64,000 nt of DNA from Candidatus Kaiserbacteria bacterium CG10_big_fil_rev_8_21_14_0_10_45_20 (GTDB lineage: Bacteria; Patescibacteriota; Minisyncoccia; Phycocordibacterales; Phycocordibacteraceae), in assembly GCA_002773335.1 (NCBI GenBank), contig PFBH01000014.1:8023-72022 (forward strand), read 5' to 3'. The position numbers and the translations under genes were made by a program. The notes under the pieces are model-generated. The model made no database searches, was not told the DNA's origin, and worked only from the letters and a program-made list of their open reading frames with translations. The number at the start of each line of letters is the position of its first letter. Position 1 is the stretch's first letter. Shown here in pieces: positions 47,355 to 53,851 of the stretch.

Positions 47355-47798
47355 TTATTCTCCTTTCAATGTTCTGTCTATGTGGCGTTTCGTATCTTTT
47401 GCTTTCAATAGCGCACGTTTATCATACCTCTTTTTGTGTCGCGCTACAGCAAATTCCAACTTTACCTTCCTGTTACCATTATACCACTTTATCGGGATAA
47501 TTGTCAACCCTCTCTTCCCGTCTTGTTCTGCAAGTTCAAGAATCTCTTTTTTTGAAAGAAGCAGTCGGCGTGCCCGTTCAGGGTCGTATGATGCAGGCGT
47601 GTTCTTTTCTTGATATGGAGATATCGAAGCTCCAACCAGAAACACTTCACCTCCTCGCACTAATACACGAGCTCCAAGCAAAGAAGCTTTTCCTGCACGA
47701 ATGGCTTTTACTTCATACCCAAAAAGCTCTGCTCCTGCAGAGTACGTTTCAAGAAATTCATAGTCAAAATGCGCCTTTTTGTTTTCTACAAATGCCAT
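47355..47798 (-). CDS. smpB: SsrA-binding protein SmpB
   Basis: MAFVENKKAHFDYEFLETYSAGAELFGYEVKAIR is the conserved SmpB N-terminus. Confidence 0.9.
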   Translation of the reverse strand: MAFVENKKAHFDYEFLETYSAGAELFGYEVKAIRAGKASLLGARVLVRGGEVFLVGASISPYQEKNTPASYDPERARRLLLSKKEILELAEQDGKRGLTIIPIKWYNGNRKVKLEFAVARHKKRYDKRALLKAKDTKRHIDRTLKGE

Positions 47799-47873: not shown

Positions 47874-49853
47874 ATGACAGGTATACTACGAAGAATGAAT
47901 AACGCATCGTCTGGGAAAGGCTCTAAAAAACCTACATCACCAAAAAAAACACCGCCTGGTTTTGGAAAACGAGGTCCTCGTATTAAACGTCCACAAAATA
48001 AATATGGAGGAAACTTTACACTTTCGTTAATCGCAGCGCTCATTGTGTTAACGATCTACTCGTTTATGACTAGTCAGTCGGGCGATGTTGAGGATATCTC
48101 ACTCTCTACACTCGCGTCAGATATTAAGTCTGAGCTGGTAGAAGAAATTACCGTGCAAGGAGATACACTGACCATCGTGTATACAGACGAGACAAAAAAG
48201 AAGGCAAAAAAAGAACCAGACAGCTCGCTTTCAACAACGCTCGTAAACTATGGACTCACCCCAGACGAGTTTGCGTCAGTCTCTATACTTGTTGAAAACG
48301 AAGGAGGGTTTCGTTTTTGGTTCTTCTCACTCGCTCCAATTCTCGTTCCGCTACTCTTGATTGTTGTGTTTATTTGGTACCTCTCGCGACAGGTAAAGGG
48401 GGCGGGAGTGCAAGCCTTCACGTTTGGGCAGTCAAAAGCGCGTCTCATTGATCCGAAAGATAAGGTGCAACGAGTAACGTTTGCTGATGTTGCTGGCGCA
48501 AAAGAGGCGAAAGAAGAGCTAACAGAGATTGTAGATTTTCTAAAGAACCCAAAAAAATTCTTAGATATTGGAGCCACCATTCCAAAGGGTGTGTTAATGA
48601 TGGGTGCGCCGGGTACCGGAAAGACTCTCTTAGGGCGAGCTGTTGCCGGAGAGGCGGGAGTGCCTTTCTTCTCTATATCGGGTTCAGAGTTTGTAGAAAT
48701 GTTTGTAGGAGTTGGGGCAAGCCGTGTTCGCGACCTCTTTAAAATGGCGAAAGCATCGGCACCTGCAATTATATTTGTTGACGAAATTGACGCGGTGGGG
48801 CGCGTACGTGGAACCGGCGTTGGCGGTGGAAACGATGAACGCGAGCAGACACTGAACCAAATCTTGGTTGAGATGGACGGGTTTGAGCCAACAGAAAAGG
48901 TGATTGTGATGGCTGCGACAAACAGACCAGACGTACTTGACCCTGCGCTGTTGCGACCGGGGCGTTTTGACAGAAGGGTCACCATTGACCTGCCTGACCG
49001 TGATGGTAGAGAAGAGATACTCAAGATCCACGCCCGCAAAAAGCCACTCGCCGAAGACGTAAACCTGCGCGTCATTGCCGAGAGAACTCCAGGATTTTCT
49101 GGGGCTGACTTGCAGTCACTAATGAACGAAGGGGCTATCCTTGCCGCGCGAGAAGACCGCAAAAAGGTGTCGCAGTTTGACTTGGTGCGTTCAATTGAAA
49201 AGGTTATGCTCGGGCCTGAACGTAAAACACACTTGCTGAACAAGAAAGAAAAAGAAGTGACGGCATACCACGAAGCAGGTCATGCGCTCATTGCCTCGGT
49301 GTTGCCGTACGCTGATCCGGTTCACAAGATATCTATTATTTCTCGCGGTCGGGCAGCGGGGTACACACTAAAACTTCCTCTCGAAGATAAGAAGATGCAA
49401 TCTAAAAAAGAGTTCTTGGACGACATTGCTGTTTCTCTTGGCGGATACGTGGCAGAGAGAATGGTATTTGGTGATCTCACCACCGGCCCTTCAAATGACC
49501 TGCAAGTACTTACGTCACTGGCGCGCGATATGGTAACAAAGTATGGTATGTCGGATAAAATGGGACCGGTTGCGCTTGAAGGAGAGGGAGGCAAGGCGCT
49601 GTTTGGAAGGGGAGTAAATGAAAAAGAGTACTCAGAGCGCGTGTCGGCAGAAATTGACGCTGAGGTAAAACAGATTGTTGACGAAGCCTACGCAAAAGCA
49701 ACCACCATTCTGACCGACCACCGAAAGGCACTTGATGCCATCTCTGCAAAACTTATGGAAGTAGAAACGCTTGAGCGCGATGAATTTGAGAAGCTTTTGG
49801 TGGTTCACGGTATTGAGCCAAAGAAAAAACAAGACATAGAGCACCAAACGTAG
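47874..49853 (+). CDS. ftsH: ATP-dependent zinc metalloprotease FtsH
   Basis: AAA Walker [12 protein letters not shown] region, HEAGHAL zinc site. Confidence 0.95.
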
Positions 49854-49893
49854 AGGGAAAGCGCTGAGTCGTTAGAGATCTATAATAAAAAAC

Positions 49894-49925
49894 ACCTTCC
49901 GTTGTGCTCGGAAGGTGTTTTTGGT
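49894..49925 (+). terminator. Rho-independent terminator after ftsH (ACACCTTCCG...CGGAAGGTGT, then a T run)
   Basis: Seen in the sequence. Confidence 0.6.
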
Positions 49926-50029
49926 GAAACATTCTTGCAAAAACTCACTGCTTTTGTTGGGTTGTATATCCACATGGTGTGTGGATAGTATTTGTACGTT
50001 TAAACTATAATATAAAAGAGATAGTTTAA

Positions 50030-50734
50030 ATGTTCGGTATTATGTCAAAGTTTTCAAAACGAGACCTAGCGATTCGGATGCGAGAAAAAGGAATGAGTTA
50101 TTCTCAAATAAAAGAGCATTTGCAAGTCAGTAAAAGCACCCTTAGTTTATGGCTTCGTCATATGCCCCTCTCGGAACAGAGAATACGAGAACTGCGAGAT
50201 CACTCTGAGCAACGAATAGAGAAAACAAGGGAAACAAAACGAAAGAAAAAGTTACAGCGTATACGCAGTGTTTACTCTGAGGCTGTAAAAGATATTGGTA
50301 AAGTTTCAAAAAGAGAACTGTATATAGCGGGGTTTTTTCTCTATTGGGGGGAGGGGGTAAAAGCTGATCCGTATACAACGATGTTTACGAATACTGACCC
50401 TGCTATGGTGAAGTGTTTCATTCAGTGGATCGCTCTTTTAGGAGTAAAAAAATCTGACTTGAAAGTATATCTACACGTTTATAGTGATATGGACATTCCC
50501 CAAATAATTACATTCTGGTCTAATGAATTAAATATCCCTCAATCGTCGTTTCGGAAACCATACGTTAAAAAAAGTGTTGCTGGTAAACAAAAAAATTATA
50601 AGGGTCGTTTTGGTTTTGGTACCTGTAATATATATGTGCGTAATAGAGACATACGTGAAAAAATAATTATGTCTATTGCCAGGATACGAGAAGTCTATGG
50701 GGGTATTGCTTTTGACCCTGAAAAAGAGATATAG
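50030..50734 (+). CDS. HTH-containing protein with a degenerate single LAGLIDADG-like motif (putative free-standing homing-endonuclease-like gene)
   Basis: N-terminal helix-turn-helix (MSYSQIKEHLQVSKSTLSLWL). YIAGFFLYWGEG sits at the LAGLIDADG position. Distal KGRFGFGTCNIYVRNRDI resembles the second conserved block of LAGLIDADG enzymes. The gene is bracketed by GAGATA(TA)GTTTAAAT direct repeats. Confidence 0.35.
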   Translation: MFGIMSKFSKRDLAIRMREKGMSYSQIKEHLQVSKSTLSLWLRHMPLSEQRIRELRDHSEQRIEKTRETKRKKKLQRIRSVYSEAVKDIGKVSKRELYIAGFFLYWGEGVKADPYTTMFTNTDPAMVKCFIQWIALLGVKKSDLKVYLHVYSDMDIPQIITFWSNELNIPQSSFRKPYVKKSVAGKQKNYKGRFGFGTCNIYVRNRDIREKIIMSIARIREVYGGIAFDPEKEI

Positions 50735-50741
50735 TTTAAAT

Positions 50742-50816
50742 CCGCCCTTAGCTCAATTGGTTAGAGCATCTAGCTTATACCTAGAAGGTTTCCTGGTTCG
50801 AGTCCAGGAGGGCGGA
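50742..50816 (+). tRNA. tRNA with anticodon UAU (Ile, reading AUA), no encoded CCA
   Basis: Acceptor stem CCGCCCT/AGGGCGG, D-arm GCTC-AATTGGTTA-GAGC, anticodon arm TCTAG-CTTATAC-CTAGA, T-arm CCTGG-TTCGAGT-CCAGG. The variable loop appears to be 6 nt, so the fold has one irregularity. Confidence 0.6.
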
Positions 50817-51282
50817 CATGATAGAGAAAAGCAAACTGCTTTGCTTTTCTCGATACATGTCCGAGCCGGAGCCATGTTTTTCCAGCAGGAAAAACAGGCG
50901 AGGCGGGGTCGCGGAATTTTGCGAGTGACTGACGAGCAAAATATCCGTGACGACCAGACAGAAATATCCCGCCTGCGCGGGATTTTCTGCGTCAGTCCGA
51001 GGCACAGGGTTGTGTGAGTTTGAGCGAAGCGAAAGGCGAACACCCCGAGCCGGGGTCACCACAAGAGTACTTCTATTTCTCTAATTCGATGACTCATAAG
51101 AGAAATTGGTCGCGCGAAAAATTTCCGTTAGGAAATTTATTTGTGACGACCAGATACAAATATCCCGCCTGCGCACTGTTTTTGTTTACATGTCCGAGCC
51201 GTACCACACGGGCACTTCACAAACGTGTGCAAAAAATCATTGTAGTGGCAATAACACATAACATCCTATATCATAGCTGTAT

Positions 51283-51675
51283 ATGGCAAAGGTAATACAA
51301 TTTCCCGGTAGCCCAGAGAAGCGAAGACGAATGGCTCAGGAAAGAAAATTAAGGGAAGATAGGGATTATTTTGATAAAAACAGAGCAAAGGTGCGCGTTG
51401 CCCTTGATCGACAAAAGGCATTTTCTCAACAAGTTTTTACAGAAGATATGCAAGGTAAAAAGAAAACACTCTTTGCTCACGAAAAAGACGCCTTTTCTCA
51501 AATGTCACTTGAAGACTTAATTCACGAAGCGTGGAATATTGACGAGACGGTATGGAGCGGTACACCAGCGCGAGCAAAGGCTTTCCTTTCTGCTCTGGGT
51601 GCTCGAATTGTTCGATGTGGTGGCTTTAGTGATGTTATTTCTGACCCTTCAGAGTATCCAGATGATATTGGATAA
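51283..51675 (+). CDS. Hypothetical protein (130 aa)
   Basis: ORF only. Follows a repeat-rich spacer downstream of the tRNA. Confidence 0.3.
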   Translation: MAKVIQFPGSPEKRRRMAQERKLREDRDYFDKNRAKVRVALDRQKAFSQQVFTEDMQGKKKTLFAHEKDAFSQMSLEDLIHEAWNIDETVWSGTPARAKAFLSALGARIVRCGGFSDVISDPSEYPDDIG

Positions 51676-51682
51676 GCTGACA

Positions 51683-53851
51683 CTATTCAAAGTGGAGGCT
51701 CCGAGCTTTCTTTTGAGACATCTCGCCAAGCGCGGGATGTTTTTTTAATATCGGATCTTTGGCAACCAATGCAAACGCTTCAGTGCGTGCCGCTTCAACC
51801 AGCTTAAGGTTTTTGAGTGCCTCCATTCCAATATCGGAGAGGCCGGATTGGTGCCTTCCGTATAATTCTCCAGCCCCCCTGATAGATAAATCTTTTTCGG
51901 CAAGCTCAAACCCATTCTTTGCTGTTTGTATTGCTTTTAATCGGGACGATTCGCTTTTGGCAGACGATTCAACCATTAAAAAACAGTATGGCTGGTGACT
52001 TGAGCGCATTACGCGCCCACGAAGTTGGTGGAGTTGTGCCAACCCAAACCTGTCAGCTCCCTCTATCATAATCACGGTAGCGTTTGGAACGTTTACACCA
52101 ACCTCAACGACAGAGGTTGCTACTAAAATATCTATCTCTCCGTTAGCGAACGAGTTCATCACGTCTTCTTTTTCTTTCGGAGTCATTTTGCTGTGCAATT
52201 TTTCAATACGCCACTCTGGAAACACGCTCTCTTTGAGGCGTTTTGTCTCTGACGCAACACTCCTCGTTTGAAGAGCCATATACTTTGTTGGATCAGGCTC
52301 ATCAATGCGCGGGCAAATAACGTATGCTTGATGACCCTCTTTCAGAAGTTCTAACACTTTTTTATACGCGGTGTCTCTTTTTGGAGGTGTAATGATATCG
52401 GTAACAATGGCCTTTCTTCCAAGAGGCATCTGCTCAAGTACCGTTAAATCAAGGTCTCCGTAGAGTGTGAGCGCAAGCGTGCGGGGTATTGGTGTTGCGG
52501 TCATTGAAAGGAGGTGGGGCGACGCACCGTCTTTTTTTGCAATTTCTTTTCTTTGCGCGGTACCAAATCGATGCTGTTCGTCGATAATAACGTAGGCGAG
52601 GTGTTTAAAATTAACTGTCTTCTGTATAAGAGAGTGCGTTCCAATAAGAATTGGAATTTCTCCATTTGCCACCCACTTTAGTAGTTGAGTGCGAGAAATA
52701 GGCGTCGCGTCTTTTTTATTTACCTTTGATGGAAACTTGTAACAACCGCTTGATGTTATAAGCCCGATATTGATAGGGTGATCGATAAAAAAATCGGTAA
52801 ATGTTTTAAAGTGTTGCTTTGCCAAAATCTCAGTCGGTACCATATAGGCAACCTGAAGGTTGCCAAAATCCTGCCCGTGGGGGCGCGAAGTCACTACACT
52901 GTAGGCGGTTGCAGCAGCGACAGCCGTCTTTCCGCTTCCTACGTCTCCTTCAAGGAGGCGGTGCATAGGGTAACTATTTTCAAAATCTTTCAAAATGTCA
53001 CTGATAGAGTCCACCTGCCCTTTTGTGGGGGTAAACGGAAACGAGTCAATAAACGTCTGAAGCTTTTTTTTGTCTGTGTCTATAACGTACGACTTCTCGT
53101 TTTTATTTCGCTCTCGTTCTTTTGCACGGTCAACTTGAATAAGAAACACCTCTTCAAATGCAAACCGTTTTCGCGCTGTTTCTGCGTCTTTTTCTTTTTT
53201 GGGTTGGTGCGCAAAGACAAACGAGTCTCTGAGTGATGGCAGGTTATATTTTTTTAAAATGGTAGGAGGTATAACGTCTTCAATAAAATCAAGCACATCA
53301 CTGCGCAGTACTTTTTGGATGGTGTGGTACAGCCACAGAGACGAGACGCCGGCTGACTCTGGGTACACCGGAAAGAGCCCTTCGTATCCCTCAAGAATGG
53401 GAATGCATGTTGCTTTCTCAACAACGGGGTTGGCGACATACTTCTTTCCGTTTCGTTCGGTTACTTTTCCACGAATACGAACGAGCTCTCCTTCTTGAAT
53501 CATTTTTGCCAGATACGGTTGATGAAACCACACAACACGGAGGGTATGAGATCCGTCAGAAAACGAACCTTCTGCCATCGGTACTTTTGTGCGGAATGAT
53601 TTTTTTATTTCTAATTTAGAAAACTGACCATATATAACCACTGTTTCATTTGGCTCTGCGGTTGCAATGCGCCTAATATCGGCAGAAGACTCGTACCGAG
53701 AGGGGATGTGGTACAAAAGGTCCAGCACCGTTTCTATACCAAGCTTTGTGAGGGCAACAGCTTGCTGTTTCTGTATCCTAAAATGAGAAGAGAGCGTATC
53801 GTGTGGCTTCATGCTAAATTGTTTCAAGTATACCTCTCTTATATATGACAC
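51683..53851 (-). CDS. recG: ATP-dependent DNA helicase RecG
   Basis: Wedge domain, helicase motifs GDVGSGKT, IIDEQHRFG, and the TRG-like C-terminus. Confidence 0.85.
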   Translation of the reverse strand: MSYIREVYLKQFSMKPHDTLSSHFRIQKQQAVALTKLGIETVLDLLYHIPSRYESSADIRRIATAEPNETVVIYGQFSKLEIKKSFRTKVPMAEGSFSDGSHTLRVVWFHQPYLAKMIQEGELVRIRGKVTERNGKKYVANPVVEKATCIPILEGYEGLFPVYPESAGVSSLWLYHTIQKVLRSDVLDFIEDVIPPTILKKYNLPSLRDSFVFAHQPKKEKDAETARKRFAFEEVFLIQVDRAKERERNKNEKSYVIDTDKKKLQTFIDSFPFTPTKGQVDSISDILKDFENSYPMHRLLEGDVGSGKTAVAAATAYSVVTSRPHGQDFGNLQVAYMVPTEILAKQHFKTFTDFFIDHPINIGLITSSGCYKFPSKVNKKDATPISRTQLLKWVANGEIPILIGTHSLIQKTVNFKHLAYVIIDEQHRFGTAQRKEIAKKDGASPHLLSMTATPIPRTLALTLYGDLDLTVLEQMPLGRKAIVTDIITPPKRDTAYKKVLELLKEGHQAYVICPRIDEPDPTKYMALQTRSVASETKRLKESVFPEWRIEKLHSKMTPKEKEDVMNSFANGEIDILVATSVVEVGVNVPNATVIMIEGADRFGLAQLHQLRGRVMRSSHQPYCFLMVESSAKSESSRLKAIQTAKNGFELAEKDLSIRGAGELYGRHQSGLSDIGMEALKNLKLVEAARTEAFALVAKDPILKKHPALGEMSQKKARSLHFE

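Follow-up and report, generated by a model that had tools for sequence, protein, structure and literature searches.

A gene lodged against the transfer RNA (tRNA) gene for tRNA-Ile(UAU) in Candidatus Kaiserbacteria is, with moderate probability, one of a large group of stand-alone genes, so far unannotated, that resemble homing-endonuclease genes and have tRNA genes as their targets. The gene, here called X, was analyzed in a 64,000-nucleotide (nt) stretch of DNA from Candidatus Kaiserbacteria bacterium CG10_big_fil_rev_8_21_14_0_10_45_20, a representative of the Candidate Phyla Radiation (CPR, or Patescibacteria); this whole stretch (contig PFBH01000014.1, positions 8,023 to 72,022) is referred to below as the window. 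X occupies positions 50042..50734 of the forward strand and encodes, from an ATG conserved in the family, a protein of 230 amino acids (aa) with a helix-turn-helix (HTH) and a LAGLIDADG-like domain. From its architecture, fold resemblance, adjacency to a tRNA gene, conserved synteny, the existence of empty and decayed sites, selection, and base composition, we infer homing-like behavior, and with it nuclease activity, a target site, dimerization, and homing of X. An earlier sequence-only reading of this locus is supported in part: the open reading frame (ORF), the HTH, and the tRNA adjacency stand, whereas the target-site duplication does not.

Association with tRNA-Ile(UAU) in CPR Genomes

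In GTDB, represented by one genome per species, 303 genomes contain a relative of X, and the best 80 loci (L001-L080) were analyzed. By record titles, nearly all of them belong to Patescibacteria/CPR, with L016, L055, and L066 labeled Burkholderiales or Gammaproteobacteria. Since these loci were selected via an intact motif, the sample is biased against pseudogenes. The tRNA-Ile(UAU) gene is found at the 3' end of X in 79 of the 80 loci, and the contig of the remaining locus stops at this point. The median gap between the two genes is 9 nt. In the window, X ends with a TAG stop codon (50732-50734), and a 7-nt spacer separates it from the tRNA-Ile(UAU) gene at 50742..50817 on the same strand; ARAGORN and the Rfam tRNA model (66 bits) confirm this adjacency, which was noticed in the sequence-only reading. 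At 14 loci the X ORF enters the tRNA gene by 10 nt, the stop codon being formed by T8-A9-G10 of the tRNA. The window tRNA begins with a C1-G72 pair; across the 80 tRNAs, position 1 is C in 28 and G in 45, and the discriminator base is A in all.

The tRNA gene lies on the opposite strand in 11 of the 79 loci, the gap being -1 to 16 nt and mostly 1-3 nt, and this inverted arrangement arose in at least 5-6 separate clades of X. The DNA abutting the X stop codon reads alike in both tRNA orientations, for example, (T)CCGCCC in the window and in L028, because the acceptor stem is a 7-base-pair inverted repeat. Such symmetry of the junction would fit a process that recognizes the end of a tRNA gene.

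The common gene order is ftsH > X > tRNA < recG. Of the 80 loci, 62 encode FtsH upstream of X and 48 encode RecG downstream of it, and the link between X and the tRNA is kept despite other neighbors in L042, L056, L058, L062, and L069. The closest relative of the window locus, L001, shows identities of 73% for X, 80% for FtsH, and 71% for RecG, that is, X diverges about as fast as RecG. Given this divergence and the shared location, the window copy of X is no recent insertion. Thus, the small mobile insertion proposed from the sequence alone gives way to an old conserved resident, inherited largely vertically at tRNA-Ile(UAU).

Occupied, Empty, and Decayed Sites

A metagenome scan by the tRNA-Ile(UAU) pattern yielded 120 further loci and samples such tRNAs with or without X. 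Here, X adjoins the tRNA only in L125, L155, L158, L163, L202, and L219, and lies 450 nt off in L201. Among ~15 metagenome loci with a Paceibacteria-like ftsH (at least 60% identity), an intact X is present in one. Empty sites are represented by L228, L197, L216, L182, and L212, where ftsH is followed by tRNA-Ile(UAU) within ~20-100 nt. The FtsH proteins of loci of this type are Paceibacteria-type, 64-74% identical to the window FtsH, and sensitive tblastn revealed no trace of X at these five loci. Empty-site relatives had been envisaged in the sequence-only reading, and X-less ftsH-tRNA-Ile(UAU) junctions are indeed found in related genomes. In L228, the tRNA is also followed by recG, as in the window. 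At other metagenome loci, the position of X between ftsH and the tRNA is occupied by unrelated genes.

An example of decay is provided by L164 (8263-8393, minus strand), where the last ~25 codons of X (...YKQRFAHGTCKV...RDLSEKF and the stop) remain beside tRNA-Ile(UAU), the remainder of the ftsH-tRNA interval being an unrelated ORF of unknown function. The empty-site tRNA of L182 is closely similar to the window tRNA, and no obvious systematic difference in tRNA sequence was seen between filled and empty sites. The empty and decayed sites show that X is dispensable for tRNA-Ile(UAU). The occurrence of occupied, empty, and decayed states at one site is the pattern expected of a homing-endonuclease gene.

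An obligatory maturation or modification factor of tRNA-Ile(UAU), or an essential regulator, was also considered as a role for X. It was ruled out, as most such tRNAs in the metagenome scan are without X, even next to Paceibacteria-type ftsH/recG.

Domain Architecture of the Protein

The X product is 100% identical to the NCBI hypothetical protein COU15_02155 of Candidatus Kaiserbacteria bacterium. The ATG at 50042 is used in the NCBI record and is conserved in the family alignment; the upstream ATG at 50030, the first in frame, would make the protein 234 aa long. Residues are given below in this 234-aa numbering, as in the AlphaFold2 model, which was built from a 40-sequence alignment and has a predicted local distance difference test score (pLDDT) of 88. 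All features of the protein are encoded on the forward strand.

The N-terminal HTH seen in the sequence-only reading is well founded: it comprises three helices (residues 7-41, 50048..50152) and is matched by Pfam HTH_23 with an E-value of 5.6e-5, just under the gathering score. The same family matches 36 of 38 diverse members. A scan of NCBIfam returned only transposase HTH matches, far sub-threshold, and the HTH weakly resembles those of the IS630, IS3, and Tc3 transposases. It is followed by a long basic linker helix (residues 60-89, 50207..50296; pLDDT ~90) and a C-terminal alpha/beta domain (residues 94-224, 50309..50701) with a predicted LAGLIDADG-like fold.

Searches with PHROGs and PDB sequences gave no match for the C-terminal two-thirds of X. 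The Pfam families LAGLIDADG_1/2/3 do not match the protein at E-values up to 10; a scan of the 38 diverse members at E-values up to 1 placed no LAGLIDADG family among the 25 most-matched Pfam families; and Pfam WhiA matches neither X nor these 38 members. A Foldseek comparison with PDB found nothing significant, the top hits being OmpA-like and IspF folds with E-values above 0.03. The LAGLIDADG-like character of the C-terminal domain is suggested by the resemblance of the modeled fold. The segment IAGFFLYWGEG, earlier taken for a degenerate LAGLIDADG block, indeed belongs to the first helix of the domain (residues 94-108), which terminates at E108-G109, where LAGLIDADG motifs place an acidic residue and a glycine; the sequence profiles, however, do not match it.

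The core motif L-Y-W-G-E-G-V-K occupies residues 104-111 (50339..50362). In 38 CPR and viral members, LYWGEGxK never varies at L, Y, E, G, and K, and N-x-D, one W, and one G are likewise invariant, even with viral members of 22-33% identity included; the family core is LYWxEGxK...NxD...W...G. In the model, E108 is a candidate metal-binding catalytic residue.

Two homologs have unusual ORFs. P0121 (449 aa, from a 1823-nt ENA contig) contains two complete tandem units of HTH plus core in one ORF and may be a genuine fusion, a pair of adjacent genes joined because a stop codon was reassigned or missed, or an artifact of assembly. Such fusion is the route by which double-motif LAGLIDADG enzymes evolved. 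The other homolog, L125:3102-3650 (contig Ga0209340_1001048), adjoins tRNA-Ile(UAU) and has an uninterrupted frame only when TGA codes for Trp. Its two in-frame TGA codons coincide exactly with the invariant W41 and W106, which suggests that the source is an organism or phage with a code-4-like reassignment.

Relatives in Viral Contigs

A scan of IMG/VR revealed 34 full-length relatives of X with 22-33% identity, many of them on contigs of 250-530 kilobases (kb). Almost without exception, they are set within tRNA arrays, usually with the end of one tRNA gene 40-85 nt upstream of the X relative and a second tRNA gene touching or overlapping its 3' end; in about a third of the loci the gap to the downstream tRNA, often to its 5' end, is -15 to +12 nt. 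The adjacent tRNAs include His, Val, Lys, Cys, Leu, Glu, and others. Some relatives are antisense to the tRNA array, and one contig has two copies. The arrays contain 12-23 tRNAs in 5-6 kb, a density that is typical of large phages. By a profile search, the family comprises at least 1776 protein clusters at 90% identity.

Chromosomal members are not limited to tRNA-Ile either, as seen from L202:13776-14645, a divergent second member of 289 aa with an N-terminal extension, located 25 nt upstream of tRNA-Gly(GCC). The same CPR-like contig also has a copy of X linked to tRNA-Ile(UAU).

The strict adjacency to tRNA genes throughout the superfamily could also indicate that the X protein acts on the adjacent tRNA transcript, for example, in its 5' maturation, in an anticodon modification that stops UAU from reading AUG, or in protection from, or repair after, anticodon nucleases. 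Such a role would account for the position of the gene beside tRNA genes in CPR bacteria and phages alike, and a stop codon of X inside the tRNA, as at the 14 loci described above, implies a shared transcript. Some LAGLIDADG proteins are RNA maturases. A decoding-fidelity problem is reported for tRNA-Ile(UAU) (PMC3575796). Nevertheless, most sampled tRNA-Ile(UAU) genes are without X, including those in closely related syntenic contexts, and at many loci X is antisense to the tRNA or to whole arrays. The viral members lie beside many tRNA identities and hence have no anticodon specificity; moreover, the N-terminal domain is a DNA-type HTH, and no known RNA-modification or RNase fold was detected for X. 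We consider action on the tRNA transcript highly unlikely.

The Flanking Repeat

Short repeated strings around X had led the sequence-only reading to a duplicated target site and, as one option, to a minimal insertion sequence (IS). The strings exist, but at slightly different positions: GAGATAGTTTAAAT lies at 50018-50031, not 50016-50029, and GAGATATAGTTTAAAT at 50726-50741, not 50727-50742. They are part of an extended repeat, AAAAGAGATA[TA]GTTTAAAT, at 50014-50031 and 50722-50741, with 18 matches and a 2-nt indel. On the forward strand, copy 1, AAAAGAGATAGTTTAAAT (50014..50031), is located in the 5' leader of X and forms a local palindrome with 49996-50008. Instead of directly preceding the ATG of the ORF, it overlaps the ATG at 50030, and the family start is at 50042. 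Copy 2, AAAAGAGATATAGTTTAAAT (50722..50741, forward strand), does not directly follow the stop codon, as had been thought, but extends from the final four codons through TAG and across the 7 nt that separate X from the tRNA. Within it lies a -10-like TATAGT (50730-50735), the last base of which is 6 nt upstream of tRNA position 1. An inverted copy, TTTAAACTATA, is present at 49999-50009, and an 11-nt inverted repeat pairs 49999-50009 with 50730-50740.

The Smith-Waterman score of the repeat, 14, is equalled in 14 of 2000 mononucleotide shuffles (~0.7%) and is also reached in 3 of 79 relatives, through unrelated AT-rich strings. Comparison of the region upstream of X with the X/tRNA junction gave no flanking direct repeats above chance in any of the 79 relatives. 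In L001, only the core GTTTAAA occurs at both repeat positions, and the X/tRNA junction is largely conserved. The repeat is real and only modestly unusual. Because it is missing from the 79 relatives, where matching strings occur at chance level, the earlier interpretation as a target-site duplication has to be rejected. The repeat is best seen as a local, lineage-specific likeness of an AT-rich 5' leader to a promoter-like gene/tRNA junction, and not as an insertion scar.

In a minimal IS, the HTH protein would be the transposase and the 14-20-nt direct repeats the target duplication; the weak likeness of the HTH to the IS630, IS3, and Tc3 transposases fits this, as do the direct repeats and the 11-nt inverted repeat (49999-50009 and 50730-50740) that flank the ORF in the window. 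However, only the HTH resembles transposases, far below the cut-off, and no DDE, serine-recombinase, or tyrosine-recombinase domain, that is, no transposase catalytic fold, was found by sequence or fold. Unlike scattered IS copies, X occupies the same location at every analyzed locus; the flanking repeats are not found in the 79 relatives; and copy 2 of the repeat is partly coding sequence that is kept in the closest relatives. A minimal IS is barely credible. Insertion sequence and target-site duplication were ruled out as candidates by the chance-level repeat matches in the 79 relatives.

Selection, Composition, and Inheritance

The ratio of nonsynonymous to synonymous substitution rates (dN/dS) for X is 0.05-0.12 between close pairs; such low values indicate that the X protein is functional. 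The low guanine-plus-cytosine (GC) content of the ORF, already noticed in the window, holds, with 37% compared with 45-48% in the flanking genes. The same tendency is general: at 78 of 79 loci the AT content of X exceeds that of its flanks, with a mean GC difference of -7.6 points, and at 40 of 50 loci its GC content at third codon positions is under that of ftsH.

Pairwise identities of X correlate with those of its neighbors, with Spearman coefficients of 0.44 for FtsH and 0.42 for RecG, values reached in none of 500 permutations. The correlation between FtsH and RecG is stronger (0.77), a partial incongruence of X with its host. Nearest neighbors concur in 22 of 51 loci. No pair of loci has a striking excess of X similarity, and the lower correlation may partly stem from the shortness of X. 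Inheritance of X is mostly vertical, with noise or some exchange.

Proposed Model of tRNA-Directed Homing and Its Alternatives

In the proposed mechanism, the X protein would act as a homodimer formed via the helix 94-108, with the beta-sheet and the HTH recognizing a DNA site that lies at, or overlaps, a tRNA gene end in X-free genomes. A cut would be made there with E108 as a metal ligand, and recombinational repair from an X-bearing genome would then copy X beside the tRNA. The tRNA would provide both a conserved target and flanking homology, as for SegB of phage T4. In large viral contigs, different family members are lodged between many kinds of tRNA genes. One clade, that of Paceibacteria-type CPR bacteria, keeps to tRNA-Ile(UAU), for the most part in the interval from ftsH to recG, and is inherited largely vertically and held intact under purifying selection, with occasional loss or decay.

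Several points weigh against this model. All 80 analyzed copies are intact, under strong purifying selection, and in conserved synteny, and the divergence of X correlates significantly with that of neighboring genes, so that the CPR clade more closely resembles a stable gene of the host than a selfish element of the usual kind. For a homing gene, it is unusual to be tied exclusively to one tRNA species in the genomes of hundreds of species. As regards the viral branch of the family, the IMG/VR contigs are viral by database label, and tblastn with a viral member found no homolog in cultured phage genomes (INPHARED).

The main rival to homing is domestication: the CPR clade would no longer home but would serve the host as a LAGLIDADG-like DNA-binding protein of the WhiA kind, which binds in or close to the tRNA-Ile(UAU) gene and, for example, regulates how this AUA-decoding tRNA or its own gene is transcribed, with the two 18-nt strings of the window as operators. 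The intactness, strong constraint, and stable synteny of the CPR clade all agree with domestication. It is harder to reconcile with the absence of X from related genomes that have the same ftsH-tRNA-Ile(UAU)-recG context, with the one decayed copy, and with the lack of the paired repeat in 78 other loci. Further points against it are that the Glu proposed as catalytic does not vary even among viral members, that viral paralogs are found at many tRNAs, sometimes in several copies per contig, and that the 11 of 79 loci with the tRNA on the opposite strand stem from at least 5-6 separate events. Domestication appears rather unlikely.

A further scenario, which we regard as distinctly unlikely, is that the CPR clade is more than selfish, being a LAGLIDADG-derived factor that co-evolved with tRNA-Ile(UAU). 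It has two versions: (i) a homing-driven cassette of gene and tRNA spread the UAU tRNA and thereby AUA decoding without lysidine (TilS), or (ii) the X protein controls, or guards from loss, the sole AUA-reading tRNA. Co-evolution would explain the sole UAU partner, the intactness under selection, and the at least 5-6 flips of the tRNA at the 3' end of X.

Comparison with Known Systems

Free-standing homing genes at tRNA genes, the class to which the favored homing interpretation assigns X, are already known. SegB of phage T4 is a free-standing homing endonuclease of the GIY-YIG type located in a tRNA cluster; its recognition site includes the tRNA T-psi-C motif, and it promotes inheritance of itself and of the neighboring tRNA genes (PMC2330249). 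Similar to SegB and to homing genes in phage tRNA clusters, X stands alone, is lodged between or against tRNA genes, and at one and the same site is carried by some related genomes but not by others. Unlike SegB, the X family combines an HTH with a LAGLIDADG-like domain, and one of its clades is chromosomal in CPR bacteria, with one tRNA species over a long evolutionary time. The activity, target, and homing of SegB have been demonstrated, whereas those of the X family are proposed from sequence and context.

Among the closest systems to X are also the single-motif LAGLIDADG homing endonucleases, homodimers of the I-CreI/I-CeuI type. LAGLIDADG homing endonucleases have an alpha-beta-beta-alpha-beta-beta-alpha core, work as homodimers or pseudo-dimers, cleave a long DNA site, and leave 4-nt 3' overhangs. 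A domesticated case is WhiA (DUF199), a transcription factor of Gram-positive bacteria with two degenerate LAGLIDADG domains and a C-terminal HTH, in which the catalytic acidic residues are lost. In contrast to WhiA, X has one LAGLIDADG-like domain, an N-terminal HTH, and an invariant Glu, and it is dispensable and patchy, whereas WhiA shows near-universal vertical conservation in its host clade.

X shares its host phylum, which is rich in homing elements of stable-RNA genes, with two described groups: insertions in CPR ribosomal RNA (rRNA) genes carry canonical LAGLIDADG homing genes (PMC11270868), and tRNA introns of Patescibacteria carry HNH homing genes (PMC13011429). The homing genes of both groups are located inside the RNA gene and are recognized by the Pfam models for LAGLIDADG or HNH. 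X, in contrast, is outside the tRNA gene, abutting its end, and has no Pfam LAGLIDADG or HNH match. We found no earlier description of the X family in the literature searched, including that on CPR tRNA introns and rRNA insertions, and there is no model for its C-terminal domain in Pfam, NCBIfam, or PHROGs. The novelty lies in the architecture and in a chromosomal clade long tied to one unusual tRNA.

If homing is correct, X represents a new and abundant family of site-specific nucleases, with at least 1776 clusters (90% identity) and at least 303 species genomes, and with a clear target class, the ends of tRNA genes. The SegB paradigm would then reach beyond T4-like phages to uncultivated huge phages and CPR chromosomes, and the family would offer fresh scaffolds for sequence-specific DNA recognition. 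It would also raise the question of whether homing helped to spread the unusual tRNA-Ile(UAU) in Patescibacteria, and would allow informed annotation of hundreds of hypothetical or "helix-turn-helix domain-containing" proteins.

Genomic Context in the Window

The upstream neighbor of X is ftsH (47874-49853, forward strand). A hairpin with a perfect 14-nt inverted repeat followed by a T-run (49888..49922, forward strand) is located 3' of the ftsH stop (49853) and is likely to be the ftsH terminator, in which case X would be a transcription unit of its own. A sigma-70-like promoter match, TGGATA-18-TATAAT, is present at 49982..50011 on the same strand; it is a consensus match only (10 of 12 positions). 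L001 also has TATAAT followed by the motif GTTTAAA in the 5' untranslated region.

Downstream of the tRNA, a non-coding stretch and a 130-aa ORF precede recG (51683-53851, reverse strand). The stretch, 50818-51282 (~460 nt), is GC-richer and has several hairpins. It contains 37-nt direct repeats at 50942 and 51138 (89% identical), and the 15-nt string TACATGTCCGAGCCG occurs in it at 50854 and 51187. An Rfam scan of 49800-51400 identified the tRNA only, the best other hit being a weak RsmY match far under threshold (E-value 0.1). The stretch could be an unannotated RNA or debris of a rearrangement.

The AUA-decoding tRNA-Ile(UAU) adjoins ftsH in the window (47874-50817) and in L001-L080. In many other bacteria, tilS, which lets tRNA-Ile(CAU) read AUA, is in an operon with ftsH; the ORFs around ftsH that were scanned in the window do not include tilS. 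Directly upstream of ftsH in the window is smpB (47355-47798, reverse strand), and a transfer-messenger RNA gene is found 2.5-3 kb upstream of X in L011, L016, L024, L043, L044, L059, and L080. Hence, genes of trans-translation belong to the same conserved neighborhood. They matter at the 14 loci with the X stop codon inside the tRNA, because there an RNase P cut of the shared transcript would leave a non-stop messenger RNA.
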